A stretch of 64,000 nt of DNA from Tubulanus polymorphus. Taxonomy: Eukaryota > Animalia > Nemertea. This document shows positions 701 through 64,000 of this stretch, one piece after another. Every line of letters begins with the position of its first letter. Position 1 is the stretch's first letter. The stretch is from positions 22,964,560 through 23,028,559 of the forward strand of contig NC_134027.1 in assembly GCF_964204645.1 (NCBI RefSeq), written 5' to 3'. The translations under genes and the position numbers were made by a program. The notes beneath the pieces are model-generated. The model did no database searches and had not been told where the DNA came from. It was given only the letters and a program-made list of their open reading frames with translations.

Positions 701-820
701 TAATTTTGAAGTGGATGATTTCTTTTAAATTGCCAAAATCTATAATATATAATGTAGCAGACGCATTGAAAATGAACGACCGAAACCCCCGTGGTTTTCA
801 ATATAGTTTCATATCTACAG

Positions 821-3800: not shown

Positions 3801-6800
3801 CGACAACATGGATAAATATTTCACCCAACCCAGCAGTAAATCATAAACCCGGATCTCACAGTGGACAGATATCTACTAGTAGTCTAGTAGTATCAACTGA
3901 TAAGGATAAGAATGGAAGACAATACAGATGTACAGCTAATCAGAACAGTCATCCCGTTAATGGTCTCAACCAAACCACAACATTGTCTATATTGTGTAAG
4001 TGTGGTATAGCACGTGTAATGTGTTTAACGGTTACATATTATTTCATTCATCGATTTGAATCGGAATACCAATCATTATCTGCATCTTCATGGTTCATTA
4101 AGATTAAATCAACCAAATGCGCTTTACTTATTTACAATTCGCATGATTTCAGTTCAACATCCGTAGATTGAGAGAATATTGAAAACAAATTATAATATGC
4201 TTAATGGTGAAAAACGGGCAGATTATGTGTTAGTAAACAATAGTCAGATCGAATGTAAAACTGAATCAGTCTTCGATCGATTTTCTTTACTTTGATAAGA
4301 TATGATAGTCTACCGTCAGATTATCTCAATGTAACGTCAAATTGTTTAATATCGGCTTTCTGACACGAGGGGGCGATAGTGTGCGTATGATACGTTTGCC
4401 ATATTTTTCATGTTTTGTAATATTATCAAAGTCGTTACGTAGAATCTTTGCAACTATTCCTTAATTTTCTTGCAAACTTCATGTTCTTCTCTCGGGGCTT
4501 TTGAATGTACAATTTTTGAAGTTTTAGAAACACTAGTTTTCCGGCCATTCTCCTTACGTCTGCTGTTACATAAAAATCTAACAGAGAATCACTTCGAGTT
4601 ACATCGTGTTCATTTATTGGTCCTCGCAATGACCAATTAGAAAAATACCCTGCAAAGAGGTATGAATCGCTAGATGTCGTACAAAAACAGGGTTTGGACT
4701 GTATTCCCGTTTTGCATATTTCGGTAGAAGAGCTGACATGCGCAGTAAGAATCAATTCTGTACTCAGTAAGAACCTTCACGCTCTGGACGAGTTCTCCAT
4801 AGTTCATGCAAGAAATTATTGGCGTAATCGAGTCTATGAGAATAAATCAATTCTGACTTGAAACGGTACCAACAAGCGGACCCCTGCAGGTGTTTGTCTT
4901 ATTTGGGTGTTTTTCTTTATCAGCAGTGCTTACTTCCTACTGAAGTGGCGCATGCCTGATGCGGTACATCGGTATCAGGGACATAGACTGGTTGCCTTGT
5001 CTTTTCGAACTTACTGCGAATGCAGTGGCCCTGAATTCGACAGGCAACCATTCTATCAGGGACAACGATTACAACGATTACCGTTCACTGTAAGAGAAAA
5101 TCACATGTTCGCATCTTTCAATGACCGTCTAATAAAGTATCAATCATGACTTTCAATGTTATATCTTCAGTTCCACCCGAGTCAATTACACTGACTGAAA
5201 TTCCAAACGGTCCAGTTGTTCACGGTACATCAAAAACTCTGACATGTACAACTGAATCCAGTAACCCGGTGTCTACAATTGTCTGGGCGTACAGCTCTTG
5301 GACGACAACGTGGACAAATATTTCACCCAACCAAGCAGTAAATCATAAACCCGGATCTCACAGTGCACGGGCATCTACTAGTAGTCTAGTAGTACCAACT
5401 GATAAGGATAAAAATGGAAAACAATATAGATGTACAGCTTATCAGAACAGTCAAACTGTCAATGGTGTCAACACATCCATGACGTTGTCTATATTGTGTA
5501 AGTGTTCAATAGGCGATTTATCTTCTTGATAAATGAAAATGCACAATAATCAGATGTATTCGTAGCCGTTTCGGTAGAGGTCTTGGATTACTGTAGCAAT
5601 GAAATGAAAAATTATCTTTTAATTTTGTAAAACATAGTAGTTAGTGTTTATCAGATGACTGGATATCAATCAAATCCACGAATGATTAATTCGTCACAAA
5701 AAACTTATAAAAACTGATTGCAGTAAAAACTGATATGATTTCATACGAGGGAATTTTACTCCATTTATCGGTAACTTTTTATTGCCGATGTCCGCTGTGA
5801 ACAACCAGTATGACTATAGTGAACTGTTATTTATCTCATAAAAACCCTACGAAAACGTCGTTGTGTTCTTACAAATGAACTTTACTCTATCTATCAGTGA
5901 TATTTTATTACCGATGTCCAATCTAAACAACCAGTATATACACAGTACAACGACAGCGTCCGGGGGGACATAATTACTTTGCATCGAAGGAAAACATTCT
6001 CAACAATTCATCTATCTTTATTCTAAGTTCTATTCCGAATTTCATCCATATTTTGTTTCAATTCTACTCCGTTACGCAAGGGGATCAAATTCCTCTCATA
6101 GCATTAGCGCAACTGGTACATATCTTCATTTGAGACTACACTGTACATTCTTTCATATTTCAAGTGCTGAAAAAGTTACTCTTGTATTTTTTAGAAACTT
6201 TTTATTCTATATACACTAGACACAATATTACATATTTAGTTTAATTCTACAATAGATGCACCGCAGCTTTCTTCACAAGTTGAACCCGTTGCCGCAAATA
6301 TAGGAGAAAGTGTTAGATTTACGATAAACTACGATGCAAATCCGTTAGCGACAACTCTCAACTGTAGACACAATTCAACAAATGACCGACGGAAATTGAA
6401 AAAGACCAGTTTAACGCAGTGGAATGTCATCATACAATCAGTTCAGGCGTCTGATTTTGGATCTTATTCGTGTAGACTCAATAATTCAGTTGGTAGCATA
6501 GGTATAACACTGAAACTCACAGAAACTGGTAAGAATCATGTGCTATTTCGAATTATATGTTGTTTTCAGAAATTCGCAGTCATTTGCACTATAGCACTAT
6601 TTACCACTTATCAATTCTAATAAAACCTGCAAATATCGATTGCAGCCTGAAACCTATTTTCAATGATAACTCTTCTGTTAGTCGTTCATCAATTGATAAT
6701 ATTTGAGTAGTCGGATGTCTGGAGGGATGCTGGGCCCAGGGTTCAGATTAATACCGGAGTAACACTCTGAATAACACGAGACTGCATTTTGCTGAACTGG

Positions 6801-9800
6801 GATCCCAATAAATTAGTGCAGCGCGCGAACTATAAAACGAATTTCTTTTTTTTCTTATTGTTTTAGGACCTCCCCAAACACCGTCAAATCTGTCAGTTAT
6901 TGCAAAAACAGCCATTTCTGTGACATTGAGTTGGGTGTCTGAATTTGAGGGTGGTGCCAAACAAACGTTTGCTGTCAGTTACAGGGCTTGGAATTCCATA
7001 CAATTCGTGAATAAAGCTGAAATACCCGATCCCGGTTATAGAAAACTGGTGCAAACGAAAATAACCGGTTTAAAACCGGCAACTGATTACCAGTTCAAAG
7101 TGAAAAGTGTCAACTTAAATGTAGGTGATAATACAAGTCCATTTACTGATATAGTTACAACTAATACAAATGGTAAGATTGAAGGCTTGTTAGATATGTA
7201 AGTTTTATAAGATATAAATACAGGCCTATTTTTAAGCCCGTTGGAATAATTAAACGTAAATTCCTCAATTCGTTAAGTTTTTGATTAGGATAATTTTGTT
7301 TGAGTTGAATTCCTCATTCTCGGAAAATCCTCATTGCGTGTCATCGAAGAAATTCAAACAAAAAGTTCCTTCGGATTATTTTACCAGTAAACTTTGCCGA
7401 TGTCATTCACATTCGATGTCGCATCATTTTCGGTCAAATTCAGAATCAAGGAGCTTCCCGTTGATACGAATATAGGAATCGGAATACGTAGCGACATACG
7501 TGCCTCCTCGATCCCCGATCTTGAGAATTCTATCTCGGCTGTTAGTTCCAGCTAGTGGGATTGGCTGCACCCACTCCTTTCTAGATGATTGTGTTGATGA
7601 TGTATCAATTGTTTTCAGGATGATATTGATATCGGATTTGTTTTTCTCATTTTTCAGCTATTCCAATCGCTTTAATCACCGCAATGAAGCAAGCGACAGT
7701 AACACAGAAAGGAAATAGTGTCCTGATAAAATTGTCGTCGTTTCCGTCGTGTCTACGCGGAATACTGTTTCAAAAATACGAACGAATGTTTTAATTCTAC
7801 GAAACTAGAAAGTACTGGCGGTTCGATTAGTATTGAGATTAAAATCGATCCCGATCAAGCATACAGTTACCAACTGATTGTAACTGAGAGAGGTGACGTG
7901 ATTCTGAGCCATCAGGTTGAAATTCCAGGTAAATATTTGCTGGTTAGTGTCGGTAAACCAAGATCCAAACGTTGAAAAGAGAAAGATAAACAAACGAATA
8001 AATGCATAGATATCCCAACCACGCCTATAGTCATTTTGCTAGTTCGCTTTTAATGAAAAATATCTCTGGTGAAATCCAGGCCCATCGATACTTCCTTGTC
8101 ATAATTTGCACATTTTATTTTCCCATTTTTCGATCCTCTCAGTTACTACCAATGTTGCGTTGATCGGAGGTGTTGTTGCTGGTGTATTGTTGGTCGCCAT
8201 CATCGTTATTGTGTTCGTGTTTCTATTCTTGAAAGGTCGTCGAGACGGTCAATGGATCTGGACAAAATACTGCACGAAAAGGTTTATGTTTCTTTTTGTT
8301 TATACGTTACTAGAAGTTTCCTCTTCTATTCGCTAAGCTTAATCTAATGTCAATAGATTCATTTCCATGCTGAGCAATAGACTCGTATTTTGTCTTTAAG
8401 GTATGTCCTACCCGTTTGTGTCCTATTCCCTTTTTAGATGGGCCAAAGAAAATAGCAATGCCGTCCTTTGATTTGTACGAGCCATAAAAAACGATGCAGT
8501 CCTTTTTTCAACAATAAGTGTCATTAATTCCACCAATGACTTCATTAATTTTGACGATAAGGACATATTTCTTGATGTAAAAGTGGGCAATTTTCGGTGA
8601 TATATTTCAAAAATCAGAATATTATAAATGGTCTCGAAACTGGTTGTACACGTTAGTTACACCACGAGAAGATTCGAATCCCAATATTCCATTTAACCGA
8701 TCCCTTTCACTAGCGACAATTATATTTTCGAAATATGTAATCGACGTGTAAATAATGCAGCGAAATCATTCTTTCATTTCAGAAAAACTGGAGAATCACA
8801 AGTTGGTAAATGAAGTAGAAATAGATTTGTTATTCGATGGGAAATATAATATAATGATAATATTATCAGTAATTTCATCATTATTTGAATTACAGGCCTT
8901 CTAGGGTTTCATCGGTTTTCCATACACTGAATATTTTTAAAACGAATACGTAACATCAATTCTATGATATTTTTGATAATAGCGTCATTCTTGAACAGAA
9001 TTGTTCTTATAATTTCAGTTTATTCAAACACGAAGGAATCCCCGTGTATGTATATTCGATGCATTTTCTGCCTTCGTGTCTCACTGTGAATTGAGTTTAC
9101 TATCGAAAAATATGATATTTCAGACTCTTACGCCACGGTAACACCGAACGTAAATGCGGCTTTTGAAGGTGGTAAGTCAATTATCATTAAATCACTTTTT
9201 CAATTTAACTTATTATACGTACATTTCTATGAAAACATCTATGAGAAAGTTTACAAAATTTTAGTCTCACCAGTGGCAAGATGTCGTCGACATCTGTACC
9301 AACTATTTTTGTTCCAAATCCTCACAGCCGCTATTCCAAAGTGCCACCTTATCATTTTAGGGATACGAATCATTTTTCTTATCTCATAGAATTTCAGGGC
9401 TTTTAAAGATTTTATCAGTTTTTACGAAACCCCACAAGGTGAAAACTCATTTTTCCGCGGCCACTGAGTAGAGACAATAGCTTGATGTAAGTGCTTAATG
9501 ACCTCACCATCTTCTAACCAGTCTCACTGCTTCTATTCTACCCCCTCCTGAACGGCGCTAGCTATCCTTTACATGTCCCTATATTCTATTATAGCAACTA
9601 AATGCTCTTCTATCTTTCCAACAAACTCCCACCTTGTAATCTGAGCCATTTGCCATCAGTGTGCACACTGCACACTCTACTCATATATACATTTAACTAT
9701 TGAATCTACACCAAAAAATAATCTTCCGTTCGAACGGAAAGGTTTGTGGCCTCGAAAAAAATATGTATTTCTCAGCATGTTACCATAGGTTTTCTATTTA

Positions 9801-10823
9801 CTTACACTGAATATTATATTTTTTCAATCTTGGAATAATTTTCATCATTTCAGTCTATTCAACCAGTAGTCAAGCCCATGGCACAGATCTGTGTATGTTT
9901 ATTCGATGCATTTGATACTTTCTCATTTCACTGCGAATTTAGTTTACAATTTATGGAATATGACATTTCAGACTCTTACGCCGCGGCCACAAGGAGCGTA
10001 AACAAGGCTTTTAACGGTAGGTCAATTATCATTGAATTAAGTCACACATTTCTATGAGAAAATCTAGAAAATCTAGGAGACAATATAGAAAAATTCTAAC
10101 GAAGGGCTAGCTATCGTAGACATTTTGTTTCAATCATCCTTGACCTAGCCTCCGCGCCTGCCTTGTCATTTTCGGGAAAGTGAGCATTTCATTAATCCGC
10201 TTGCATTCTTAGTTTTCCTTCGTTAAAATCTGGCTTCTGAAGATATTTTACTGTTTTCTAAAAACACTGAATATGTGATATTAGGAAATTCATACATATC
10301 ATCTATGTTTTTCTGGATATAATTGATTTTATATTTATTCCTTGAACCGAATTTCCACCATTGCAGTTTAATCAAACAGTAATGAAGCATATGACAAAGA
10401 CTCGCGTATGGATTATATTCGTTTCATCTGAAACCGTCTTATCTCCCTGTGAAATGCGTTTACTATTGATAAAATCATATTTCAGACTCTTACGCTGAGG
10501 AAACACTGTATGTAAATGTAGCTTTTGGCGGTAAGCAAGTCATCATTAAATCACTTCATCGATTATCATTAACCCATACCATAAAATTCATCGATAGACA
10601 TCATTCTAAGCAAACAATTTAGAATCTTCACAAAAGACTTAGATATCGTCGGGTTTTTCAACTACTCGTCACCTAAGCTCCGCGGCCGCTTTATCATTTT
10701 TTTTGGGATAGTGATAACTATGTGTTTTGTTTGTTTCCTTCATTAGAAGCAGACTCTGTAACTGGTGACCAGAACCATTATGAAGAAGTTATTATGGAAC
10801 TTTTTACTGACTCGAAAAACTAG
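821..10823 (+). CDS. IgSF receptor copy A (5' end outside window): 8 Ig + FN3 + spacer + TM + Tyr-motif tail; carries a frameshift and a premature stop
   Basis: GT-AG exons: Ig 821-1096, 1911-2186, 2315-2617, 2848-3123, 3250-3552, 3669-3995, 5171-5497, 6256-6528; FN3 6867-7172; spacer 7658-7928 (271 nt, 8-nt deletion versus the 279-nt paralog exon, stop at 7792-7794); TM 8143-8281 (VALIGGVVAGVLLVAIIVIVFVFLFL); tail 8783-8805, 9019-9045, 9124-9171, 9854-9892, 9972-10016, 10367-10405 (TAT>TAA), 10486-10530, 10753-10823. Ig motifs such as LTITC..YKW..DSDVYTC. Confidence 0.85.
4150..5095 (+). pseudogene. Dead 303-nt-type Ig exon split by an insertion (5' part also at about 28690-28850 minus and 44535-44660 plus)
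   Basis: atggtgaaaaacgggcagattatgtgttagtaaacaatagtcagatcgaatgtaaaactga (exon 5' part) breaks at about 4265; the exon 3' end acaacgattaccgttcact|gtaag resumes at about 5071. Confidence 0.7.
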
Positions 10824-12394: not shown

Positions 12395-15300
12395 GAATGG
12401 TGGCAGCAGATGTAGAAATGAATACATGTCGTTCAAACATTAATTTTTGAATGTCTCAGGTATGAATTGAAACTCGCTCTGTCTATAGCTGTAAAAACCG
12501 AGCACCTCAGTTTCATATTCTACTTCCTGGTTGGAATTTCTACGAACACATATTGAGATATTCACGCAAAAAAGTGTGAAAACAGTGTTATAAGTAGTTT
12601 CTTGTAAGCGATCTCTTTTCTTCTAGAAAGTAAATTCGGCCACTGTATTTATTCTCGCCTCTGCGTCCTATCTGTTGAAAGGCCTTTTAAGTCTTAGGGA
12701 TGCTTATCGAACATGTAATTCGTTATAATTTTGAGTACTAAGTACAGAAGAAACAGTCATTTCCTACTTATACGACGAGCGTTGAGCCGCCTAAACAGAA
12801 CGAAATATAAGCCGCGGACTCAGGTTTACACGTATACGCTCAACCTTCTTCAATGTCATGCGACTATTCCCCCTCTTGTTTGCTATGATCATGTTCATAT
12901 TCTTGTTAAATAGGAGCAATACTTCCTCGTCTCTATTGCGTCGCATATTACTGGAGATCGGGATTTGGCAGTAGCAACGAAAGAAGAAAACATTCCACTC
13001 GCTCATCTAACTCGTGACTGGAAAAACGTTGATGAATGATTCCAAGGTTTTTGTTTGGAAATTAATCCGATTTTTGAACACATTTTTATCGAATTTGGGG
13101 AATTCTTTAGTTTTCTTCATTTAAGATCTACCAATCAATGTAACATTACAAAGACCGACGTCACCCGTACAGGAATCCACATCTTTTGACTTAACGTGTA
13201 CAGCTACAGGGGGCAACCCGGTACCGAACCTCGCCATAACTAGAATACCAGGGGGCAGCACTGTGAAACAGGGAGTTAGTCCTCTAACATATTCAACATC
13301 CGTCACTAAAACAGATAACCATGCAGAATATCAATGTACAGCTACTGGGGCTGGTATACCAACACCAATGATTTCTAATCAAGTTAAATTATTTGTTTAC
13401 TGTAAGTACTACACATATTTCTCAATCTACTCCATTTCTAAGTGAATGTTGCACAATAAAGAATATCAGGGTTGATAAAGATGCCGTACATGCAATGTTC
13501 CCAATCATTTTTTCCATTTTCCACAGATGCACCAAAGCTCTCGGAAAAACTCAAACCCGTCGTAGATTTACGATAAACTACGACGCGAATCCGCGAGCAA
13601 CAACTTTGAATTGCAGCCACACGTTTGAATACAGGGCTACTCCGGCAACCATGTTCTGGATCGTAACTGTAAAATCAGTTCAGGCGTCTGATTACGGATC
13701 TCATTTGTGTCAACTGAAGCGTAGAAATTACATTGAATATCCTAGAAATTGGTAAGTGCTGCATCGTGCGGAACTTTATTCCAGAAACGAAGCTTCATTA
13801 CGGTTGCTGCAGTCCACATGTGGAAAAATCCCTAGAAATTCTAATGAAAACTGCTTTAGATTCTATAGTCTCATTATTGTTCATTTGTCATCAATTGCAA
13901 AATACAACTTGTGCAACCTTCATCTTGGTCATTTTGTTCATTGTAGGGCTTCGAAATCTGACAATCGTCGCAAAAACGGCCGTATCTGTGACTCTGAGTT
14001 GGATATCGGAATTTGCGGGTGGCTCCATAAAAACATTCACAGTCACTCACAAGGCATTGGAATCTACAAAGTCCGCGGATAAAACTGGAATACCCGATCC
14101 TGGTTATGGGAAAATGGTGCAAACGAATTAATAACCGGATTGAAACCAGCAACTGCTTATCAGTTCAAAGTGATAAGTGTCAACTTAAATCCTGGTGATA
14201 AAACGAGGCCATTTACTGATATAGTTACAACTCGAACAAATGGTAAGTGTGAATCATGTAGAGATTTCGAATAGAACCATACAGGTCTCTTCCCCTATAT
14301 TCACTGCGCATTGATTCATGGTCCATTCCTCCTTTCGGTGTAATGAACTAAATACCGGTTTCTTGAATACTGTTGCGTATATTTCTCATCACTAAACTTC
14401 GAGAATGTTTCATACGTTTCTACTATCGGTTCTTGTTTTATAAGTTTTCCCGACAGGCGTCACCTCTACGCATGCGTATAACCCAACGGTCAACTTAGCC
14501 AAATTCATCGGCTTAGATGTATATAGATCCCTCCAATAGTATATATATAGTATTGTAAATAGTTGATGTATATATATATTTTGTTACGTTTTCATTCTCT
14601 AAATTTTAATCACTTCAGTGTTGTTTTGTAAATATTTGTATATAAATGTGTAATAGTTTTCCTCCATATACCATGGAAATGGTTGGAGTGTAAATAAATC
14701 GTAATCGTGATATTGTATCGTGTATGAGTTACACGTTCCGTTCAGCCTTTCAAAGTCTGAATCGACAGAACTTTAGGGTAGATATCAGATCCTAAAACCG
14801 ACTTGTTGCGCGTGCGCAGTGACTGGCATTGACTTCGAAAACTTGTAAAATAGAAGTTCGTGACCACGGTATATTCGTGACCACGGGACTTCTGATAACA
14901 GCACTACTGGTTGAATTATCATACTGCACTAAAGCATGTCCTGTATTATTTTCAGCTATTCCCAGCGCTATGGACACCGTATTGGATCAGGCCACGATAA
15001 CGCAGGAAAGAGATTTCGCCCTGGTGAAGATGTCATCGTTTCCGTCGAAGTACAGCGTCTACGTGGAATACTGTACGAAATATACGAACCAGTGTAAATC
15101 TACCAAACCGATAGAAACCACCGACGGTTCGATAAAAATTGAGATTAAAATCAATCCAGATCAACCATACACTTACAAACTGATCGTATCTGAAAGTAGT
15201 GACGTCATCGCCAGCAGACCGCTTGAAGTGAAAAAAGGTAAAGCTATGGCTGGAGGTTTTTGATCCAAAATATTTTGATGAGATGGAACACAACCATGGG

Positions 15301-16797
15301 AAAATAGATTCGAAGTCGCCTTCTTTTGAAAATTTGCAAAAAGGTGGCTGATTCTAGCCGAGTAAAAAAAAGATCTTTCCAATACGCCTAGCAAATATTA
15401 CATCATTTCGTTTTTGCATCCGTTTTTGTGTGGCCAAAAACAAGCGCAGAAAAGAAGATCCCGTTTTGTGTGGCGACGAAACAGGAATTAAATTTGGACT
15501 CAAATCGCTTGAAAAAAGATAATTTTTACGATAGATTTCTTATGCCGCAGATATTCTGTTGATGGTTATGTTTCTGCAAACCCAAGTAACCATAATCTAT
15601 ACAGATGCGAATATTGAAATCATCAATTTCAAACGTCATTTCTTTATTCAGTTGATGATAAGAGGACCGTAACGTCTCCAGATCCGCTGACGATTGTTGG
15701 TTTTGTTCTTAGTATCATCGCGTTTGTTCTGAACGTGATATTATTGGTATTACTTTTAATGAAACGATTAAGAAACAGAACAAGTGGAATGTAAGTGTTC
15801 ATTAATTAAATCATTTGCTGTCCATTTGTTTTGCATCAATTGCCCCCTTCTTTATGAACGATGCTGTTGTAAAACCATCAAGAAATGGCTGAGAAGTAGT
15901 CAATTGGGTTAATTTCAAAACAAGTAGGAAGATCAATTATTGTCTTCAAGCCATTAAATGGTAAATTCTTTAAAAAAACAGAAATACCTGAACACGGGCT
16001 CTGAAAATGCTCGTTCCTAGTGACTCATCTGAATCGGTTCGAATCCCATTATTACGCCGTTCTTTGAATTTGTGAAACATTTTTTTTCATTTCAGGAAAA
16101 ATGAAACTAATGATTCAACAACAGGTAAATTTGTTAAAAAATACTAGAAATATGAATTGTTTTCCCTGCTTCTAAATACTGAATATTTTTTGATAATACT
16201 ATACTACAATTGAATATTATTGATAATTACATCATATCCGAACGTATTTATAACATTTCAGTTTATTCTAACAGTAATGAACTCAAGGACACCGATTCAC
16301 GTATGTATATCTAGTGCATTTTAAACTATCCCGTCTAATTGAGCAAAACCACAATATCAATGAAAACTAATAGCTATTGTTTCATTCTAAAGGGTGGATT
16401 GCTGCCCGAAACGTTAGAAAAACACAATAGCTGTGTTTGATTGATCTCGTGGGTTTTGCTCAATTAAACTGAAGACTGGAAATAGTCTCGACTATTTATA
16501 ACTATCCCGTCTTTCTGTCAATAATTTCTATTGTATATTTTAAAAAATATTATAATTTTTCAGGTGTTTACGCCGCGGTGACGCCGTATGTAAATGTGGC
16601 TTTTTGTGGTAAGTATTTTCTCGAACATTCTTGCGAACACAGTATAGAAACATGAAGATATGATCGTTCCGCGTCCTTTTCGGGACAGTAACATAATTGT
16701 ATATATACATCCACTTCGTAAAACTTTACCGTCTTTTCCTTCATTTAAAGCAGAGCTCGAGCCCGATCAGAACAATTATGAAGAAGTCAGGAATTAA
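12395..16797 (+). pseudogene. IgSF receptor copy B, decayed pseudogene
   Basis: Promoter/exon-1 block 12395-12670 aligns to E 53010-53370 but the ATG and donor are lost. No signal or V exon found. Ig 13126-13401 open; Ig 13527-13751 deleted and frameshifted; FN3 13947-14242 frameshifted (..QTN*); spacer 14956-15237 open; TM 15652-15790; tail 16096-16124, 16262-16300, 16564-16608, 16754-16797 (VYSN.., VYAAVTPYVNV, NNYEEVRN*). Confidence 0.8.
16337..16499. mobile_element. Short Penelope-like terminal fragment with inverted arms and a 13-bp TSD
   Basis: TSD aactatcccgtct at 16324-16336 and 16500-16512; imperfect IR aattgagcaaaacc../..ggttttgctcaatt; core gggtggattgctgcccgaaacgtt. Confidence 0.6.
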
Positions 16798-20578: not shown

Positions 20579-23500
20579 TCAACATTTCTTTTCCTGCTGC
20601 TCTTTTTCTTCACGTTGTCTGCGTCGTTCGGCCTCTTCTGCTTCCAAACGAGCGACGAGTTCAGCTTGAACTTGCGGCTCAACGACGCGACCGAGTTCTG
20701 AGTACGTCGAAAAATCATCGAAATCACCGATAAGCACACCAGGGGGCGCTTGAATTTTGACGTTGTTCACGACGTGTAAATAGATCGGTTCTTTTCTCAG
20801 TTCTTCTACATCGTCTGCATTGAATGCAGGGTTGTCGACACCACAGTTAACGTACTTCACGATATCCCCATCGTCATTGTTGTAAACGTCTTGATAAGGA
20901 TTCTCTTTGTCGCCAATTGTTTGATAGGGATTTTCTGAAATCATACGCGTAACAACATTTAGTGAATTCAACAAACAATCCGTCAAACGATTCAGTTGGC
21001 CAGTCTACATCTGGGAATTGAAGGTTACAATAAATCTATCAAACCCTCCCGCATAAAAGTGGCTGCTTTCTAAAATGCCCATGACATCGTCAAGTCTGCC
21101 CACTAGTGATTGGATATTTACTTCACGCCCTATTTTCCACAATAAACTCTGCCTTACTTGGACTTCTTTTCTTTTCCCTTTTAGAAACGGTATTTTAGAG
21201 TTAGCGTATCGGACATCGTACAGAATTCTGATTCTCTCGTAAGAATCGGTGTACACGTAGAACTCACCCATTTCGTAGTTTCCATTTCTCTCTGCTTTTT
21301 TCGCCTTCTTTCCTTTACGCGTTTTGTTTTTATCGACTTGCGAGTACAGTGGTTCTGCACTATCTAACGACCCTGAAGAGAAAACACGGGATGTGAATAT
21401 CTTAGAAACAAATTTCACGTCATACTTTTTCTCGAATATCTAATTTGGCATTTCATTTTGTGTAGCCAACACATTTCTTTTCTTCGAAAAAGTTTCTGAA
21501 TGTACTTTTGCTACAAATAAAATCCCTTTAGTATAGATTTCATTCTGTGCATTTCACCTTTAGTTTTCTTGTTCTTGCTTTTATCCACATTGGAGTAAAT
21601 TGGATCAGTACCGCTTGCACCATTTACGACTGAGAATAAGCCACAAGTTTGAAAAAATTGGCAAAAACAATTTCAAACAATTCTATTCGAGAAAATCATT
21701 GTCATTTCATGTGTTATTCGTGACAACATTCGCATTCTTTACAACAACAACGATTCAGTAGTAATACTAAACTGGGAGTCATGATTTCAATGATTGAGGA
21801 AAATCATGATTAGTTTCCTAACAAAACTTTTTCATCGAAAGTGACTTTATTGATTCTGTAAAAATTATCACGCGTTTCTACGGCAATTGACGGCACTCTT
21901 CGTGTTTTCAATGATTTCATCGCATCGGTAAAATCATGATAAGTTTCCAATGTAAGCCTCTAATGTAAGGTACACCGTAGTCTATGCACAAATGGTGGTA
22001 TGGAATTGTGCACGACCAATTTCATTAAATCTTTAGTCTAATACATCGTAAATAAAAATCGTAGCGGAAAAATGCTTTTTGATTTTTTTTCACTTTATCT
22101 AGTTGGTTTTCATAAAACGAAATTTGAAAGAGTAAGATTATTTCCATTTCCTCTATGTAACTATGTGTATCGGTAAGTTCTTTGTGAATATACGGCACAT
22201 GTAATCCTGCTATTCTAAGGGCATTTCACCAAATACGTTGATCGGTTCCTTGGTATCATTCTAGATTTGAAAAACACTTGCTTACCTTGATTCTGATTTC
22301 GTTTTTTATTTTTGTCGACCTGTGCGTAAATCGGTTCCCCTGAAAATAATAGAATTCAAAATCTATTCCGATCGCCTCTACCATTCTTCTGGTCAATGAC
22401 CGAGCAAATGATAGGTTTTTATAGATTGAGCCATCAATATTGCATCATTTGGCAATTCCCGAATATAACTAATCACTGTACACTACAGGACATTACCGGA
22501 CATAACCGATCACTTCGATCATTACGTCCAAAAATACGAACCTGAATTCGCTACACTTTAAATCAAGCTTTACCTTATCGTGAGATTAATATGCATGGCA
22601 ATCTTTGGACTTAGATATTGAGATAATGAATATGTTAATTGATTCGCGGCTCGGAAATACTCGGTGGTTTTACGGAGATATCCGGCAATATCGATCGGTC
22701 CAAAAAATCGATTAATTAAGATAGGGCCTCGTAACATAAAGATAAAACTCTTACCAGTTTTCTTGACTCCATCTTCCGAAACTGCGAATATAGAAATGGA
22801 TCTATTTAAGTACTTATAATGTATTAGTTCTAATTCAGTTATGACAATATATGTGATACAGTAATAATACGTTAAATCCTACAATTGTAAATAGGCTAAA
22901 AAGTTTATTCTAAAATTACTTGTGATAATTCGGGGTATAACTGCAACCCTCCTACGATCAGTCTTAAAGGGGGAAGGATGAAGGAGACTTCTAAGATTGA
23001 AGCAATTTTTTCGTTGATTCTTTTAACAAACCTTCTACTCAATTCAGTAGATCAGAAAATATCTTTATTTCAATAATGACGAAGTTTCAATGAAATGAGG
23101 AAATGAACCGATTGCTTACCAAGATCGTTAATGCTCGAATACGGATCTGAAAATATGAAACAAGTTTAAGCATCTCATAGACGGTATTGTGATTGAAGAA
23201 TATTTTATAAAAGTCCGATCTTTAACTTAAAAACTCTGCGCTGAAGATAGAAAATATTTTTTTTCTTTTTCTTTTGCCCATTCGGGATCTAAAAGGACAA
23301 AGACAAACGAGAATTTCAATAGTGTTTTTCTCTGAAGAAATAGAAAACCCTAATAATTTGTGCCAATTTTATTACTAACAAAGAAATTCTCGCAACATTT
23401 AGGGATACGATATAACTGAAAATATTGTGGGGATTTCATTGTCCATAATGCAATATAAAAACCGACTGACAGAGATTTTCAACAATAACGTTGTGATATG

Positions 23501-23794
23501 AAAACTGTTGCAATAATCTGTTTGCGTAAATTTTCGGCGTGTTAGAAAGTTGTAAAATTGTGACATTACCGAAGTCATCGGTAGTGACGTGATTATCTTT
23601 GGTCGGTGGACTTTTAGGTTTTTTGTTGACTCGCGCGTACACGTCACCTAACAAGGAAAAGAAAACAAATATTTGAAAAAATATATGTTTATTGTTTAGA
23701 TGAGATGAAAGGTTTGAAGTGGCAAATTTTACCTCTAGGTCCGGCTACATGTCCATCGATATCGTTATAGTTCGGAGGAGGAACTGAAGCCGGA
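20579..23794 (-). CDS. Cytoplasmic tail exons of copy C (13 Tyr; PPPNY, VYARV, EPIYAQV, DPIYSNV, EPLYSQV, YQTI-x6-YQDV, EPIYLHV, STYSEL; C-terminal charged helix)
   Basis: Eight in-phase exons translated by hand; they overlap ORFs 23436-23654, 21005-21418 and 20579-20986. Confidence 0.85.
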
Positions 23795-26700
23795 CTGAAA
23801 AAAGGGAAACACACCATTTTGTGGTGATCGCCTGGGCTGGAAAGGGAATCTCTGACATGGAATTAAGTTAAACAAATAGGAATTGAAATCTCTAGTTTCT
23901 ACCTTCTCGAGCTATTTTTTGTCCAGATCCATTGACCTTCTCGACGCCTTTTCACGAATAGCAACACGAACACAATGACGATGAGGGCGAGCAACAATAC
24001 ACCCACAACAACACCTCCGATCAGTGCAACATTGGTAGTAACTAAGAGGATAAAAAATAAAATGTGCAAACTATGACAAGAAAGTATCGATGTGCCTGAA
24101 TTTCACCAGAGATATTTTTCATTAAGAGTGAACTAGCAAAATGACTATAGGTATGGGATATCTATGCATTTATTTGTTTTTTTATCTTTCTTTTCAACGT
24201 TTGGATCTTGGTTTACCGACACTAACCCGCAAATATTTACCTGGAATTTCTACCCGATGGCTCAGAATTACGTCACTACTCTCAATTACAATCAGTTTGT
24301 AACTGTATGCTTTATCGGGATCGATTTTAATCTCAATACTAATCGGCCCACCAGTACTTTCTTGTTTCGTAGAATTAAAACATTCGTTTGTATGTTTGAT
24401 ACAGTATTTCACGTAGACGCTGTACTTCGACGGAAACGACGACATTTTTATCAGGACACTATTTCCGTACTGTGTTACTGTCGCTTGCTTCAATACGGTG
24501 TTTATAGCGCTTGGAATAGCTAGAAAATTAGAAACCATGAATTCGATTTCAAAAAAGACCGGAAAAAATTATATCATCAACACAATCATCTAGACTGGAG
24601 TACGTGCAGCCAATCCCACTAGCTGGAAATAACAGCCGAGTTAGAATTCTCAAGATCGGGGATCAAGGAGGCACGTATGTCGCTACGTATTTGCATTCCG
24701 ATATTCGTATCAGTAGGAAGCTCCTGGACTCTGTTTTTGGGCTTAAAATGATGCAACATCGAATGTGAATGATATCGGAAAAGTTAACTGGTAAAATAAT
24801 CCGAAACAGCTTTTCGTTCGATTGTCGTCGTTGACGGTAACAATCACGAAATGAGGAATTTCCGAAAATGAGGAATTTAACTCAGCGAAATTAACTTTAT
24901 TAATTTCACATAAAGAAATGTGCGTTAAAGTAATCGAACGAGCTTAAGGATAGGCCTGTATTTATATCTTACTAAACTTACATATCTTACAAGTCTCCAA
25001 TCTTACCATTTGTTCTAGTTGTAACTATATCAGTAAATGGACTCGTATTATCACCGGGATTTAAGTTGACACTTTTCACTTTGAACTGATAATCAGTTGA
25101 TGGTTTTAATCCGGTTATTTTCGTTTGCACCAGTTTTCTATAACCGGGATCGGGTATTTCAGCTTTATTCACGAATTGTGTAGCATCCGATACCCTGTAA
25201 CTGACGGCGAACGTTTGTTTGGCACCACCCTCAAATTCAGAAACCCAACTCAGCGTCACAGAAACAGCTGTTTTTGCAATAACTGACAGATTTGACGGTG
25301 TTTGGGGAGGTCCTGAAACCACAAGAAAAAAAGAAATTCGTTTTATAGTTCGCACGCTGCACTAATTTATTGGGATCCCAGTTCAGCAAAATGCAGTCTC
25401 GTGTTATTCAGAGTGTTACTCCGGTATTAATCTGAAGCCTGGGCCCAGCATCCCTCCAGACATCCGACTACTCAAATATTATCAATTGATGAACGACTAA
25501 CAGAAGAGTTATCATTGAAAATAGGTTTCAGGCTGCAATCGATATTTGCAGGTTTTATTAGAATTGATAAGTGGTAAATAGTGCTATAGTGCAAATGACT
25601 GCGAATTTCTGAAAACAACATATCTTTCGAAATAGCACATGATTCTTACCAGTTTCTGTGAGTTTCAGTGTTATATCTATGCTACCAACTGAATTATTGA
25701 GTCTACACGAATAGGATCCATAATCAGATGCCTGAACTGATTGTATGTTGACATCCCACTGCGTTAAACTGGTATTTTTCATTACATGGCGGCCCTTTGT
25801 TGAATTGTGTCTACAGTTGAGAGTTGTCGCTAGCGGATTTGCATCGAAGTTTATCGTAAATCTACCACTTTCTCCTATATTTGCGGCAACGGGTTCAACT
25901 TGTGAAGAAAGCTGCGGTGCATCTATTGTAGAATTAAACTAAATATGTAATATTGTATCTAGTGTATATAGAATAAAAAGTTTCTAAAAAATACAAGAGT
26001 AATTTTTTCAGCACTTGAAATATGAAAGAATGTACAGTGTAGTCTCAAATGAAGATATGTACCAGTTGCACTAATGCTATGAGGAATTTGATCCCCTTGA
26101 GTAACGGAGTAGAATTAAAACAAAATACGGATGAAATTTGGAATAGAACTTAGAATAAAGATAGATGAATTGCTGAGAATGTTTTCCTTCGATGCGAAGT
26201 AATTATGTCCCCCGGACGCTGTCGTTGTACTGTGTAACTGGTTGTTTACATTGGACATCGGTAATAAAATATCACTAATATATGGAGTAAAGATCACTTG
26301 TGAGAATACAACGACGCTTTCGTAGGGCTTTTATTTGTTAACTCTAAGATGAGATAAATATCAGTTCACTATAGTCATACTGGTTTTTTTACAGCGGACA
26401 TCGACGATAAAAAGTAACTGATAAATGGAGTAAAATTCCCTCGTATGAAATCATATCAGTTTTTTACAAGTTTTCTGTGACGAATTCATCATTCGTGGAT
26501 TTGATTGATATACGGTCATCTGATATACACTAACTACTATGTTTTACAAAATTAAAAGATAATTTTTCATTTTATTGCCTCAGTAATCCAAGACCTCTAC
26601 CGAAACGGCTACGAATACATCTGATTATTGTGCATCATCATTTATCAAGAAGATAAATCGCCTATTCAACACTTACACAATATAGACAACGTCATGGATG

Positions 26701-32700: not shown

Positions 32701-35700
32701 AAGCAATATTGGCTCCAGGAAATTCAAAAGTATGCCCGATTTGCAAAGAATAGAGACTACCCCACCTATCTAATTTCACCCTATTTAAAGCATCCCGTTT
32801 ATGTTCATTGATTCTTCCCTGTTTCCCCAATATAAAAAGGTTACAATCAGGACAGTGAAAACAAAACAGAGAAAGATACTTTATTAGTATTAGCTTTGTG
32901 AAGTGCTTTCTCTAAAACTTTGTCCGGGTATGCAATTTTTTTCAAAAAAAGGTTGATTATGTTACTAAAATGTCAGCGTTGTGCACAAATAAAGTGAAAT
33001 TGACCATGATTCTGGGGCATTTTCCTGGGGCCATAGCCCCTTAATGCCCCAACTAAAAATGCACTTTAATTACCCGATAATTCATTTGGAAATACTGAAA
33101 TTTGCCATCAAACCTTTTGTACGCTAAAATGGAATTGAAACCCACCTTTGAGCTCTCCTTCCATCTAAAATATCATTGCCTAAAAAGTTTTTATCAGAAA
33201 TCCTTAGAAGCTCCAAGGGAAAGACCCTGAACAACCACCACTTTAAGGTAAGCTTGAGTAAATGGAAAGAAATTCAGGTAAGATTCACAGCTAGTAGGTT
33301 TACGAAAAACAGAGAAACCTATAATCCCGAATTAAGATTTTGTATGAGAACATCAAAAAATGGGTTTTTTTTCATCGAATTCCCACTCGAAGGTAAACTT
33401 CTAGGAAGGATAAATAAAGGGAATTAAGAAATGTCAAAAGATGTCAAGGATGAGATCAGTTGACACTAAACATAAAGTATAATCGACGTAACTGCGCCAT
33501 AGAAGAGGCGCGAATATAGGGTAAAATTTCAGATTCAATGTGTTCTATGAAAAGGTTAGCTAGAGTAGGCGATAGATGCCCGTAGCGAAATCATATTGCG
33601 CAAAGAAAATGCCATCATATTGAAAATAGGCTCTTCTAGCGCATAATTCTAAAAGATCAACGAGACAGTTAACTGAGGCAGGATAATTCAAATTACAGGA
33701 CGGGAGTGTACGTTTGATAAAATCTGAAGTGAGTTCCAGAGGGATGTTAGTGATATCTCTATCACTAACAACATTGACTACATCAAACGAAATGAACTTG
33801 TTGCCATTAAGGGTAACATGACGTCTTGTAGTAAATCCATATCTTGTTTGTTATGAGAACCAGAGAACGAACCAAGAAAGGAGAAAGCGTTTTTTCAATC
33901 GAGGATCCAGAAAGATGTCATGAGGGAGAGCCCCTTCTTGAGATGACAAGATGCGTAAAGGGACATTACTTTTTACGAATCTTAGGGGGGCTGTAAGGAT
34001 AAGTCGGTAAGCTGGGTAATCGGCTGGTCAATTTCATTATAAATGTATCATCAGTAGGATGTTTACGTATACTGTGTATTTATTTGGGCAGTCATTTTAG
34101 ACTGAAGAAGGGTGGCAGCAACCACCCGAAATGTTTCTAATATTTCAAATATTAAGTTATCATTCGTAACTCGCAGTCAGTGAATTGTTCAAACCCAGAT
34201 CACATGGTGAATACAATTTCATAGTCACTCTTCGTTACTGAACGCGATAAGAGAAATGATATATTATTCAATTCTTACCCACTACAGTTATTTCCTTTTT
34301 ACTATTTGCATTAGTTGAGAACATGTTCATGTAGTCGCATGACCATGATGAGAGAAATGAGATATAATTCAATTGCTAATTATTCTTACCTACTACAGTA
34401 ACTACTTTTCTACTTTCTGAAAACATGTTCATGTATTGACATGCCCATCCTCCAGCATCAGACATCTGTACATTAGTTATACGTAAACCGTAACGTCCAG
34501 CTGTGACGTCACACTGTCCAGTGTACCGAGGTTCAGTAATAGCTCCACGAGGACAGTTTGTCTTATCAAACGAATAATGTACAGTAGGGGTACTGAATGT
34601 CATACTGTAACCGCAGAAATCTTTACTGGGTGGTGAAACCTGACACTGTACGTCGGTGGTGCCACCTAGTTTTACAACTGCTGGTGTTACAACTGTCGTG
34701 ATTGTCGTGTCCGCTGCATCTATACAATTCTGCTGCTGTCCTAGAATTATTCAATCACCTTAAAACATTTAAAATCGTTCATGTCATCGTGTTCGTATTA
34801 ATCTAGTCTTTTACAAGTAATTTGTACTACATTTGGCCGGGACATACGAAAATCAACGCTATACCGCGAGGTTCGTATTAAGCCATTTCGTATTAACGAG
34901 GTTCCAATGTATATGTACCAAACGATGATCTCTAGCGAGAGTCCGAAACTTGGTGCATTTTCATCTTGATTCTTGAAAAATTAATATTCGATTTTAAAGT
35001 TTTAATTTGTGTATTTACGTAGTGCGTCTCAAACTCATTAAAGACTGAAAAACAATAGCTAAATACTAAGTAAGCGACGAACTAAGGGTAATGATACAAG
35101 TAGAAGAAAATTAACAACCATTGGTGAAACAATATCTGATTGGTTTAAACGATATTTAGAACATCTTTCACTCATATAACGGTAGATCAAGTCTGAAAAG
35201 TTTCTTTTAAGCTATGAATTTATTCGTCCAACGTTTCGACTATACCCCAATAGGAATCCCCATCTTCAGGAATAACGAGTGAAAAAAAATATGACACATA
35301 ATGCCATCGAGAACAAAGGAACCGTGTTTCTCATCACCGCGCACGTCCGAAGAATCAGTGACGAAAATCTGGTAAAAATAGCGCTCGAATAATTTAATAA
35401 TTTCTGTTGGTTTCTTTTCAATGCAAAAAAATGGAATACCCCCTGCTCAATAGAATCCTTGTTTATTATTATTTCTTTTTCGTACTTGGAATTATGTAAT
35501 GTGCATTATCAGCAATGGATCAGGTTATTGATGCGATGTAGATAGATCGGGATTTAAAACTGTCATTTGCCCTGACATTGGAGATTTCGGTAAGCACAAT
35601 CCAAAAGTAAAGACTCGGTTCCCTCATGCCATCTTCAGTGCATTTTCTACCTAAATCAAAATAAGGAAGTTGACTCCCTCAGGCTCCTCTTCAATCCCCC

Positions 35701-36411
35701 TTTCATTACAAGGACTAAGTAGAAATGTATGCCCCCCGCGTCACTTTGGAGAAGCCAGTGCACAATGAGAAACACGGTATGTATTTTGAATGGCGTTATG
35801 TGGTAGTATTTACCTGCTGTAGATCTCACGCAGAGAAGAACAATCACAAACACACACCAGACTACCGGTACATTCTGAATATATATTAGAACAATAAATT
35901 ACATGTGTTTGTCATAAATAAAGTTTTCATTTCTAAATCAATTTAATCGACGTCTTGTTCGTGGACTTAAAACGATTTAACTATTTATAACCATACGTAC
36001 ATATATTTGTAATCGCAAACAGCAATCTATGTAAGATCTATTGACGAATAAGCCACCATAATTGATTTACGTATCTAAACTCGAAATTTTTTGGATCATT
36101 TCATTAATGGCCTTTGCTTTGATGTTGGAGAGCCTAAACAATTCTAAAGCCGTGCTTAAATAAAGTCAAGTCGTGTAAAAATTAATTTGAGTAACTTATG
36201 AATCTGAATATGTAGGCCTATAACCTTTTTTTATTCAACAAATCCATGTACGCAACTAACATATTTTTGGAACTAACACAATTTTCTTGCAGTTGTGAAG
36301 TGACTGTGGTGGCTATAAGTAAGAAGCCAGTGGCCTATACGCGTGTTTTATCACGATTTTACTGCATTATATAGGCCTACATGTACTCACTTGGATGCGT
36401 TGAGTGTTCAT
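20579..36411 (-). CDS. IgSF receptor copy C, apparently intact: SP + V-Ig + 8 Ig + FN3 + spacer + TM + long multi-tyrosine tail
   Basis: Exons (minus strand): 36411-36391 MNTQRIQ; 35874-35814 signal NVPVVWCVFVIVLLCVRSTA; V 34740-34390; Ig 32221-31946, 31043-30768, 30639-30337, 30107-29832, 29706-29404, 29285-28959, 27003-26677, 25922-25650; FN3 25312-25007; spacer 24519-24241; TM 24041-23903; tail 23794-23733, 23647-23570, 23146-23120, 22781-22755, 22339-22286, 21629-21558, 21372-21268, 20934-20579. Splice phases are all compatible and I found no stop. Confidence 0.9.
27441..28125. mobile_element. MITE/non-autonomous DNA transposon with long TIRs
   Basis: TIR tacgacggcgtcctag.gacattaat..ttttcacttttccggccataattatctgcg at both ends; absent from the corresponding site in A (about 4860). 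Confidence 0.8.
32330..34150 (-). mobile_element. Same Penelope-like remnant in the V-Ig2 intron of C
   Basis: Reverse complement of about 39280-41060; hammerhead-like ctgaaga-agggtggcagcaaccaccc-gaaa at 34102-34131. Confidence 0.7.
34390..34740 (-). CDS. N-terminal V-type Ig exon of copy C
   Basis: 351-nt phase-1 exon, QQQNCIDAADTT..VQCQVSPP..YGLRITNVQMSDAGGWAC..VTVV, matching the V-set E-F strand pattern L-x-I-x-N-V-x-x-x-D-x-G-x-(W)-x-C. Confidence 0.85.
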
Positions 36412-37350: not shown

Positions 37351-40300
37351 ATGTATGGAAAGGTAAGGACGAGAGCTACCACGTATTTCATCCAAATTCA
37401 TTTTTGTAGATTAAATCTATGCAGTTCCATTGATTAACTGAACCTTGTGACTGATAAGTGCGTGGTAAATCATTATCTATCGAGATCCAAACGAAAACCG
37501 ATTTCGAAGCCGATATCACACGTGACAAATTAGTAATGCACACATTAATTTTCGGTCCCGGTTTGACAGTGTTATTTATCAACAAAATTTTTTGATTAAC
37601 AAATTCACATCTAGCGCAGACAGACACCCCTGATATTCTAACATCGAGCAGATTGTGAAATCACGCTGCTTCAGTACATTATCTTCATTACAGAAGTGTT
37701 TGGTAGGGATTGTGGTATCATTTCTAATGTGGACAGGAATAAACGGTAATATACAGTACAGATTTCTACTTGCAAAGCCGACCACAAGTGACATGATTAA
37801 TTCATTTTGCATTGTGAATGTAACAAAAATCATTAGAAGACATGCAATCATCGGCTTTTCATGATATTTGACATCAGGATAAAAGTTCCTTAATCCATTA
37901 GTAAGAACGCCCTAATCTGTGTACGCTGTAGATGATTGAAGAAATCCCGCAATTCGAATTTGAATGAAAAATTTATTTCTTTATCGTAAAAAAATTGAAT
38001 TGTGGGATTTCTTCAATTAATTCCTTAATCCACTTAGTATCCATAATGACAAAATATTTAATGCACCACAGGCGATCCTGTCCTTTTTCAAAACAAATTT
38101 GACTATGGGAAGTTTTGTACATCCTCTACCCGACCACCATTACGATTTCCACAAATTTCCACTCGGACTCACTTCAGCATATCAAGGCTTGACAACTAAT
38201 AGATTGACGCAGTTTATACTCAAAACAGATGACCTGATACGCTTCGTAATTCAAATACATATTCTTACAACGATTACTCGGACGCAATTTCATAAACGTT
38301 TTTCCTGATAAAAGTTTATACCAAAGAAATGCACTGTTAATGATATCTTGAGCAAATACAATCTGTGAGCAACGTTGCTAGAATGTTTTGACATCATATG
38401 AATGATTTCATGCGAAATATGTAATGAATAAATCATGTTTCTAAAATCATGTTGATTCAGTTTATAATCAGCCTTGCGTAAGTAGAAATCTGACTAATTC
38501 CACGTTTTTGTCACGAATTAATAATTATTTGTGGATAGTTTCTCAACACCCTCCTCTGCATTTATAGAATTAGGCTTCGTATATTGGCTTCAACTCGAGT
38601 TATGATGGACCAGTTGATATCTGTCTAAAATCGACTATAAACAAACTTTCATTTCCATTGAAAATTTCAGGTCAGCAACAGAACTGTATCGACGCAGCGG
38701 ATACGACAATCACGACAGTTGTAACACCGGCAGTTGTAATACTAGGTGGCGCCACTGTCGTACAATGTCAGGTTTCACCACCCGGTAAACATTTCTGCGG
38801 TCTCAAAATAACAATGTCTGGCCAATCGGGACAGTTTGCATTTGACGAGATTAACTGTCCTAGGGGAACTATCACTGGGTACACTGGACAATGTGACGTC
38901 ACAGCTGGGCGATATGGTATACGTATCACTAATGTACGGATGGTTGATTCTGGAATGTGGTGGTGTGATTACATGAACTCTTTTCCAAATAGTAACACAA
39001 TAATTATGTAAGAGGTAACAATGATAAAAAGTTCTTTCTCTTATCGTGTTCAGTGATGAAGAGTAACTGTGAAATCGCATTCACCATGTGATCTGGGTTT
39101 GAACAATTCACTGACTGCGAGTTAAAAAATGTGACGAATAATAACGTTAAAGCTTTATTAATCAAATTAACGTGAGTAAAACGTGTAACATTTTACACGT
39201 ACTCTTATCATTTGTAGCATGTTGATTTATAAAAGTAAGATCCCGCGATAAAAGAATTGATTGCTAACTTGTTTAATATTTGAAATATAAGAAACATTTC
39301 GGGTGGTTGCTGCCACCCTTCTTCAGTCTAAAATGACTGCTCAAATAAATACACAGTATATGTAAACATCCTACTGATGATAAATTTATTATGAAATTGA
39401 CCAGCCGATTACCCAGCTTACCGACTTATCCTTACGCCCCCCCCCCCCCCTAAGATTCGTAAAAGTAATGTCACTTAACGTATCTTATCATCTCAAGAAG
39501 GGGCTCTCCCTATTGATATCTTTCTGGATCCTCGATTGAAAAAACGCTTTCTCCTTTGTTGGTTCGTTCTGTTGTTCTCATGTCATACACGAAATGGATT
39601 TACTACAAGACGTCACGTTACCCGCAATGGAAACAAGTTCATTTCGTTTGATGCAGTCTCTCTATTCACAGCATAGATCTCTCTGCAACTCTCTTCAGAT
39701 TTTATTAAACGTAAACTCCCGTCCTGTAATTTGAATTATCCTGCCTCAGTTAACTGTCTCGTTGATCTTTTAGAATTATGCGCTAGAAGAGCCTTTTTTC
39801 AATTTGATGGCATTTTCTTTGCGCAATATGATTTCGCTACGGGCCTCTATCGCCTATTCTTGACTAGCTAACCTTTTCTTAGAACACATTGAATCTGAAA
39901 TTTTACCCTATATACGCGCCTCTTCTATGGCGCAGTTATGTCGATTATATTTTATGTTTAGTGTCAACTGATCTCATCCTTGACATCTTTTAACATTTCT
40001 TGATTCCCTTTATTTATCCTTCCTAGAAGTTAACCTTCGAGTGGGAGTTCGATGGAAAAAACCCTTTTTTGGATGTTCTCATACAAAATCTTAATTCGAG
40101 ATTAGGTTTCTCTGTTTTTCGTAAAGTTACTAGCTGTGAATCCTACCTGAATTTCTTTAACTTACCTTAAAGCGGTGGTTGTTCAGGGTCTTTCCCTTGG
40201 GCCTTGGATTTGTGATAAAAACTTTTTAGGCCATGAGATTTTACATAGTATGGGAGCTCAAAGGTAGGTTTCAATTCCATTTTAGCGTACAAAAGTTTTG

Positions 40301-53302: not shown

Positions 53303-60916
<7,614 letters not shown>

Positions 60917-63993: not shown

Positions 63994-64000
63994 TGTATTA

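Follow-up and report, generated by a model that had tools for sequence, protein, structure and literature searches.

The EPIYA segments of the bacterial effector CagA fall into A/B segments, which bind Csk, and C/D segments, which bind SHP2 (PMC3593179) and read YATID[DF] (PMC8042891). Host proteins have sites that resemble the first kind: p140Cap binds Csk through EPLYA (PMC3561454), ELM has an EPIYA Csk class (PMC5753338), and the peptides of human PAG/Cbp include YSSVNK and YASVDRNKK (PMC6277618 Table 2). By our arithmetic from peptide spacing these correspond to Y317 and Y227; the Csk SH2 domain binds at the first and the second is phosphorylated, Csk binding being stated for Y317 only in the passages cited (PMC9663509). 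Csk itself is encoded across animals by one conserved gene and is brought in by membrane scaffolds (PMC3492796). The sequence EPxYAxV has been described as a promiscuous SH2 binder and as depleted from mammalian proteomes. Here we analyse a stretch of 64,000 nucleotides (nt) from the ribbon worm Tubulanus polymorphus (assembly GCF_964204645.1, contig NC_134027.1, positions 22,964,560 to 23,028,559; the window), which holds five paralogous immunoglobulin (Ig)-superfamily receptor genes, A to E, and we focus on the cytoplasmic tail of gene C.

The account that we favour, and to which we give a slightly better than even chance, is that Tubulanus has a family of Ig receptors in which near-identical ectodomains sit either on long tails with Y[AS]xV[DN]K repeats or on unrelated short tails, gene C being a likely inhibitory member with predicted Csk docking.

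Results

Gene C occupies 36411-20579 of the minus strand in 22 exons. Its spliced model sits letter for letter inside RefSeq XP_074646830.1 (P0010, 'nephrin-like isoform X4'), and the tail exons are therefore already part of the public annotation. The protein consists of a signal peptide, a V-set domain, eight further Ig domains, an FN3 domain, a 92-residue domain that we would guess to be FN3-like, a transmembrane (TM) segment and a tail of about 270 residues. An initial annotation, made from the letters of the window, had described this tail as a series of EPIYA repeats, one per micro-exon, in phase-1 exons that could be skipped. The peptides and exon ends that it quoted are all correct, and every tail exon is bounded by AG/GT. 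Four related motif exons do exist, but their common unit is Y[AS]xV[DN]K and the EPIYA spelling occurs in just one of them. There is one motif per exon, but the motif exons measure 54-105 nt, and the true micro-exons are only the two of 27 nt. Six internal tail exons (78, 27, 27, 54, 72 and 105 nt) are symmetric in phase 1, but the PPNY exon runs from phase 2 to phase 1, so that it could not be skipped in frame.

Splicing of the tail is seen in contigs of run X4, a run whose kind is not on record and whose spliced nature we read from its CT..AC joints. These contigs span seven of the eight tail introns, including both flanks of the 54-nt EPIYA exon. The 23146/23570 joint is not among the X4 joints listed, runs X1-X3 have no spliced joints among theirs, and run X5 yielded nothing. 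Since the X4 contigs depart from the window at several letters, an allele or a near-identical paralogue may be their source. RefSeq isoform P0011 contains an alternative terminal exon at 23230-23288 (minus strand), with which the tail stops after its first motif; this exon overlaps a repeat-flagged stretch and may therefore be an artefact.

A six-frame scan of the window for Y[AS]xV[DN]K returned four matches, all of them inside gene C tail exons. None of 100,000 shuffles of the tail reached four copies of Y[AS]xV, the copies not being independent of one another because three of the motif exons are duplicates. The 54-, 72- and 105-nt exons resemble one another in DNA (0/2000 shuffles for each of the three pairs), and the likeness of the 78-nt exon to the others is weaker (36/2000 at best), which indicates that the array arose largely through exon duplication.

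The EPIYA copy of gene C shares 9 of 11 positions with an EPIYA-A segment of East Asian CagA (PMC8042891), and the PAG peptide YASVDRNKK is identical to the window motif at 7 of 9. The proposal that gene C encodes a host receptor in which Csk-type sites like those of CagA A/B stand in tandem, one per exon, holds up as a prediction from sequence comparison. Its companion, SHP2 recruitment through the repeats, does not, as none of the gene C repeats continues from its tyrosine as YATID[DF], the SHP2 type of EPIYA-C/D; only the distal STYSEL fits the consensus of a tyrosine-based inhibitory motif of immunoreceptors (ITIM).

Relatives of the tail were found in Tubulanus only. A search with the last exon matched 8 of 804 candidates, all T. 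polymorphus proteins; a further tail search matched 7 of 172, again only Tubulanus and no bacterial effector; and a search of 1.84 billion representatives gave five matches, four from Tubulanus and none a bacterial effector. The remaining match, P0027, was rejected as a repeat protein unrelated to the tail and aligned over 45 residues. An Atlas search with the tail reached a best score of 0.80, which is chance level. Given that the same unit occurs in host PAG/Cbp and that no bacterial effector appeared in these searches, the CagA likeness appears to be convergence on a host class of Csk-type motif, and the repeats are likely best read as a host Csk-type array. Gene C is a 22-exon animal gene equal to P0010 and does not belong among the bacterial EPIYA effectors. 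Horizontal transfer from Helicobacter was considered and discarded, the motif exons being split by introns and internally duplicated and having no bacterial match.

The number of Y[AS]xVxK copies per tail ranges from none in P0006 and P0022 (the latter with two looser sites) through two in P0007, three in P0008 and four in gene C to five in P0001 and P0015, the last two through tandem duplication of the 72-nt exon. Motif number (0-5) therefore differs chiefly between paralogues, by exon loss or duplication; in P0032 one exon retains the VNK-lysine part and has lost the tyrosine. The initial annotation had instead suggested that site number is tuned by skipping, for which support is weak. Of the 14 X4 joints listed, the canonical ones link consecutive exons and none of them skips one, although contigs drop rare splice forms, which limits what X4 can say about skipping. 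The apparent X4 shortcuts hold inserted letters that, read by eye, translate to tails of the P0007 and P0008 types; these short forms are expressed paralogues. In RefSeq isoforms the 27-nt exons, one of the duplicate 72-nt exons and a P0022 exon without tyrosine are indeed skipped, and P0011 ends early, but 11 of 12 models retain the EPIYA exon, the 12 comprising those that extend into that region and those that end ahead of it. The RefSeq models of this cluster also look partly chimeric across paralogues, and we have accordingly given isoforms less weight as proof of skipping. P0001 and P0015 have a single ectodomain and two tails, and residues 731-1217 of P0005 match gene C exons at 97-100%. 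Across RefSeq P0001-P0015 one ectodomain is joined to tails of neighbouring paralogues, which could reflect mis-mapping or real recombinant haplotypes. The idea that the P0005 and P0001 tails are alleles of gene C was dropped because P0010 is identical to gene C.

Tails in this family fall into two classes; the initial annotation noticed neither the second class nor the pairing of ectodomains. Seven long tails were scanned, P0005 not being counted separately because its tail is distally equal to that of P0015; the short tail is found in genes A, B, D and E and in RefSeq P0016, P0017, P0020, P0021, P0024 and P0025. The seven long tails align with one another, as do the six RefSeq short tails, and no long-short match was found at E<0.05; P0019 has a third type of tail with marginal matches. 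Y[AS]xVxK is present in 5/7 long tails and 0/6 short ones, and the same counts apply to EPxYAxV, despite its reported depletion in mammals. An ITIM of the form [ILVS]xYxx[ILV] occurs as STY[ST]EL in six of seven long tails and in none of the six short tails. Other motifs named for gene C generalise less well. PPNY is present there but among the long tails is limited to gene C isoforms; YVN is likewise present but is shared by only 3/7; and the pair YQTI-x6-YQDV exists but matches only a V-tolerant form of the tyrosine-based activation motif of immunoreceptors (ITAM), the strict form Yxx[LI]x6-12Yxx[LI] occurring in 0/15 tails. The short tails carry YSN, Y[VM]NV (5/6) and YE[ED][VI] (6/6), and we take the last two to be Grb2- and Nck/Src-type, respectively. 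The YE[ED][VI] ends also resemble the Nck sites of nephrin. Five RefSeq short-tail models are intact (P0016, P0017, P0020, P0021 and P0024).

The ectodomains cross this division. P0008, with a long tail, and P0020, with a short one, lie on a second chromosome-scale contig; for about 900 residues they show 81-100% identity in each stretch of 100 and then become unalignable. In the window, introns of genes C and A are 80-99% identical in 10 of 11 cases (70% in the remaining one) and the TM exon is 88% identical, and beyond the TM exon no gene C tail exon or intron has a match elsewhere in the window. Genes C and D lie head-to-head, with an inverted block (39273-44756 against 28596-34155; 5.6 kb) that is about 92% identical. 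A V-domain inversion between these two genes was considered and dropped, P0010 being identical to gene C. As a loose end, X4 contains a C-like TM segment spliced to a short tail.

In a tree of the V domain and second Ig domain (13 rows, with P0025 replaced by gene E of the window and with P0001, P0006 (no V domain), P0018, P0026 (no TM segment) and isoform copies omitted), long and short genes are sisters at two starred nodes and one unstarred node; support is 100/100 for P0008 with P0020 and 99/97 for P0005 with P0024 and gene D. A single long-tail clade is rejected (approximately unbiased test, p-AU 1.3e-7). Two unalignable tails on ectodomains that are alike across classes make a paired-receptor pattern, and we infer that gene conversion or repeated duplication between inverted neighbours homogenises the ectodomains.

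The V domain is the variable part of the receptor, with pairwise identities of 57-99% (mean 71%, 15 rows) compared with a mean of 80% for the next Ig domain, and its variability is located on predicted strands C, C', F and G. The predicted structure of the gene C domain is a V-set fold (predicted local distance difference test, pLDDT, 72) whose best structural matches are VHH and T-cell receptor V domains (Z 9.7, root-mean-square deviation 2.5, 96 residues aligned). Six cysteines within 34390-34740 (minus strand; C5, C32, C42, C62, C76 and C100) are invariant in 14 rows, and the domain lacks the usual C-strand Trp, which is reminiscent of unusual Alr domains. A V-domain search matched 17 of 104 candidates, all from Tubulanus, and an Atlas search with the FN3 region returned generic FN3 proteins.

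The remaining genes of the window are short-tail paralogues (Table 1). Gene A has lost 8 nt near 7750, which shifts the frame, and one of its repeated tail exons contains a stop. Its tail (8783-10823, plus strand) contains three copies of a unit made of a YSN exon and a YA[AT] exon, the third YSN copy carrying the stop, and offers a parallel case of motif dosing through exon duplication.

Several repeats accompany the genes. An intronic fragment at 33560-33850 (minus strand) and its inverted copy near 39600-39900 have, by eye, a decayed reverse-transcriptase-like translation; as the fragment is common to genes C and D, it is older than their last homogenisation. Introns of the same two genes share an insertion of about 480 bp (27224-27642, minus strand, and 45175-45788, plus strand; 93%) that contains short inverted pieces and may be what is left of a mobile element. 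Long imperfect palindromes resembling miniature inverted-repeat transposable elements lie in introns and downstream of gene E (49586-49906, 56308-56667 and 61122-61331). A 138-bp segment upstream of gene C (36814-36951) recurs with 96% identity at the right end of the window (63861-63998), a hint of another C-type gene just beyond it.

Table 1. Positions of the gene C exons and of the neighbouring genes within the window
Feature	Position	Strand	Remarks
Gene A	1..10823	+	C-like ectodomain and TM, short-type tail; 5' end beyond window
Gene B	13116..16797	+	Partial short-tail paralogue; frameshifts
Gene C last exon	20579..20934	-	YQTI-x6-YQDV, YVN, NPAF, EPIYLHV, ITIM-consensus STYSEL, stop
Gene C 105-nt exon	21268..21372	-	EPLYSQVDKNKTRK; EPLYSQVDK
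Gene C 72-nt exon	21558..21629	-	DPIYSNVDKSKNKK; DPIYSNVDK; in tandem duplicate in P0001/P0015 tails
Gene C 54-nt exon	22286..22339	-	GEPIYAQVDKNKK; EPIYAQVDK (fits EPxYAxV)
Gene C 27-nt micro-exon	22755..22781	-	No tyrosine
Gene C 27-nt micro-exon	23120..23146	-	DPYSSI; missing from some RefSeq isoforms
Gene C tail exon 2	23570..23647	-	78 nt; DVYARVNKKPK (DVYARVNK)
Gene C tail exon 1	23733..23794	-	62 nt; PPNY; phase 2 to 1
Gene C TM exon	23903..24041	-	Core without charged residue
Gene C membrane-proximal domain exon	24241..24519	-	92 residues; no Pfam match
Gene C FN3 exon	25007..25312	-	PF00041
Gene C Ig exons 6-9	29706-29404, 29285-28959, 27003-26677, 25922-25650	-	
Gene C Ig exons 2-5	32221-31946, 31043-30768, 30639-30337, 30107-29832	-	
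Gene C N-terminal V-set Ig exon	34390..34740	-	Pfam V-set; most variable domain of the family
Gene C signal-peptide exon	35814..35874	-	
Gene C first coding exon	36391..36411	-	Start codon; matches P0010 N-terminus
Gene D	38671..51302	+	Short-tail paralogue; V exon reads into stop
Gene E	55116..60917	+	RefSeq P0025; short-tail paralogue; frame shift near 57471

Discussion

In the model that we favour, a ligand at the variable V domain would cluster the receptor, a Src- or Abl-family kinase would phosphorylate the repeats, and Csk, held at the membrane through its SH2 domain, would turn Src-family kinases off. The conserved distal STY[ST]EL could add an SHP site, the short tails would signal in the opposite direction, and gene conversion between inverted neighbours or repeated duplication would keep the ectodomains alike. 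EPIYA-Csk signalling blocks phagocytosis in mammalian cells (PMC4030455), which suggests, by analogy, what the long tail could do.

A number of observations weigh against this model. The activating label for the short tails finds no strict ITAM there and no charged TM residue of the DAP12 type (0/14 TM cores), and an ITAM-like pair is also on the long tail. P0006 is a long tail without any repeat, and the chimeric look of RefSeq models weakens pairings made at the protein level. Among the 12 other V domains compared, no short-tail one exceeds 76% identity to that of gene C (the gene A V exon lying outside the window), as against 93% and 86-88% for two other long/short pairs. Between genes C and D identity is 68-86% in the V exon and 85-97% behind it, and synonymous divergence (dS) is 0.36 in V as opposed to 0.04-0.09 in the next six Ig exons, so that the homogenised tract begins just past the V exon, unlike classic pairs in which the ligand domain is kept alike. 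Over the whole V domain the ratio of nonsynonymous to synonymous change (dN/dS) is 0.5-0.7, and residues 36-72 reach no more than about 1, so that positive selection is not shown. Lastly, the best PDB sequence match to the ectodomain is an adhesion protein, SYG-2 (E 5e-18), and all four short-tail genes of the window have a frameshift or stop in this assembly.

These last two points speak for an adhesion or junction receptor akin to nephrin/SYG-2 that has expanded in this lineage, in which the repeats would take Csk to cell contacts, the likeness of ectodomains would be a neutral by-product of conversion within an unstable cluster, and most short-tail copies would be decaying. We regard this explanation as possible but rather doubtful. 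It agrees with the nephrin-like and syg-2-like RefSeq names, with the anchoring of Csk by VE-cadherin and other adhesion-linked scaffolds (PMC3492796), and with homogenisation that extends over introns as much as exons. It sits less easily with the many paralogues and their divergent V domains, with intact RefSeq short-tail models whose tail motifs are conserved, with the recurrence of a long/short pair on a second chromosome-scale contig, and with tail searches that found no relative outside Tubulanus.

It is also conceivable, though improbable, that the repeats are sorting signals of the YxxPhi type, or lysine-rich membrane or charge spacers, multiplied by exon duplication. A lysine run follows each motif, lysine and arginine make up 18% of the TM-proximal part of the long tail, an NPx[YF] motif is also present, three motif exons are duplicates at the DNA level, and the P0032 exon has kept its lysine part and not its tyrosine. 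Such a role would leave unexplained why the small residue at +1, the V at +3 and the following D/N-K closely match the PAG and CagA A/B sites, and why the acidic -3 and aliphatic -1 residues match the Abl substrate pattern of p140Cap (PMC3561454). Least probable of all is a promiscuous CagA-like scaffold that recruits both Csk and SHP2 and whose number of sites depends mainly on the skipping of exons in one gene, an idea consistent with six symmetric phase-1 exons, isoforms lacking 27-nt or one duplicate 72-nt exon and the promiscuity ascribed to EPxYAxV, but opposed by the lack of a YATID-type copy, the retention of the EPIYA exon, the X4 joints (contigs dropping rare forms) and the assignment of short X4 forms to paralogues.

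Taken further, the inhibitory Csk-docking model allows a broader and more tentative proposal, which we put forward as a possibility only: that these are spiralian paired immune receptors independent of those of vertebrates, whose off-switch is a graded set of 0-5 Csk-docking exons instead of ITIMs and in which off and on tails exchange ectodomains between inverted neighbours. If so, the ribbon worm would have off/on receptor pairs kept alike by gene conversion, with a Csk-run inhibitory arm in exon-sized doses, and would provide a testable invertebrate model for the origin of paired receptors. It would also represent a natural host use of tandem EPxYAxV, a motif reported as depleted in mammals and exploited by CagA, and would make the CagA A/B motif part of the ordinary host vocabulary beyond mammals. 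The 0-5 site series would offer a natural means of relating Csk-site number to signal strength, a question so far asked with CagA. Should the Csk part alone hold, the addition would be modest. A check of titles, in which subscription literature is thinly covered, gave none on this family for T. polymorphus or nemertean immune receptors, and titles on EPIYA/Csk invertebrate receptors yielded nothing related; we also know of no account of allorecognition in T. polymorphus. As far as this check reaches, a nemertean family with two tails, paired ectodomains and exon-dosed, putatively Csk-type sites appears to be new.

Comparison with known systems

Gene C shares with nephrin and SYG-2 its layout of tandem Ig domains, FN3 and TM segment, in addition to the PDB match, and differs in being one of a lineage-specific multigene family whose members have an additional juxtamembrane domain and tails unrelated to any non-Tubulanus protein found. 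With CagA EPIYA-A/B and with Pragmin and p140Cap it shares an EPIYAQV core, a basic flank and a copy number varied by duplication (PMC3593179; PMC8042891; PMC3561454). Unlike CagA, it is a host-encoded receptor and not an injected effector, has the EPIYA spelling in one of four copies and has no C/D type.

Among invertebrates, Hydractinia Alr and Botryllus FcoR are likewise clustered single-pass receptors whose ectodomains are of V/I-set or other types and whose tails carry tyrosine motifs, and the FcoR motifs are swapped by allele and splicing (10.1101/2022.03.04.482883; PMC11507803); Csk is not mentioned in the Botryllus FcoR paper. Polymorphic clusters of single-pass receptors are also described in Biomphalaria (PMC13712769). 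No homology to Alr or FcoR was found, and the Tubulanus receptors differ from both in a longer ectodomain and two discrete tail classes.

The vertebrate pairs CEACAM1/CEACAM3, Siglec-5/14 and Siglec-11/16 resemble the Tubulanus family in their similar ectodomains on different tails, inverted clusters, conversion, and birth and death (PMC2832619). The inhibitory side in Tubulanus differs in its predicted tandem Csk sites and single ITIM, DAP12-type TM charge and strict ITAMs are lacking, and the V exon escapes conversion in one neighbour pair. For the repeats themselves the closest parallel is PAG1/Cbp, to which no homology was found; it too sits in the membrane and has several Y[AS]xV sites, of which YSSVNK and YASVDRNKK resemble those described here (PMC6277618; PMC9663509). 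PAG is almost without ectodomain and is palmitoylated (PMC3492796), whereas gene C encodes a receptor with nine Ig domains that carries one site per exon.

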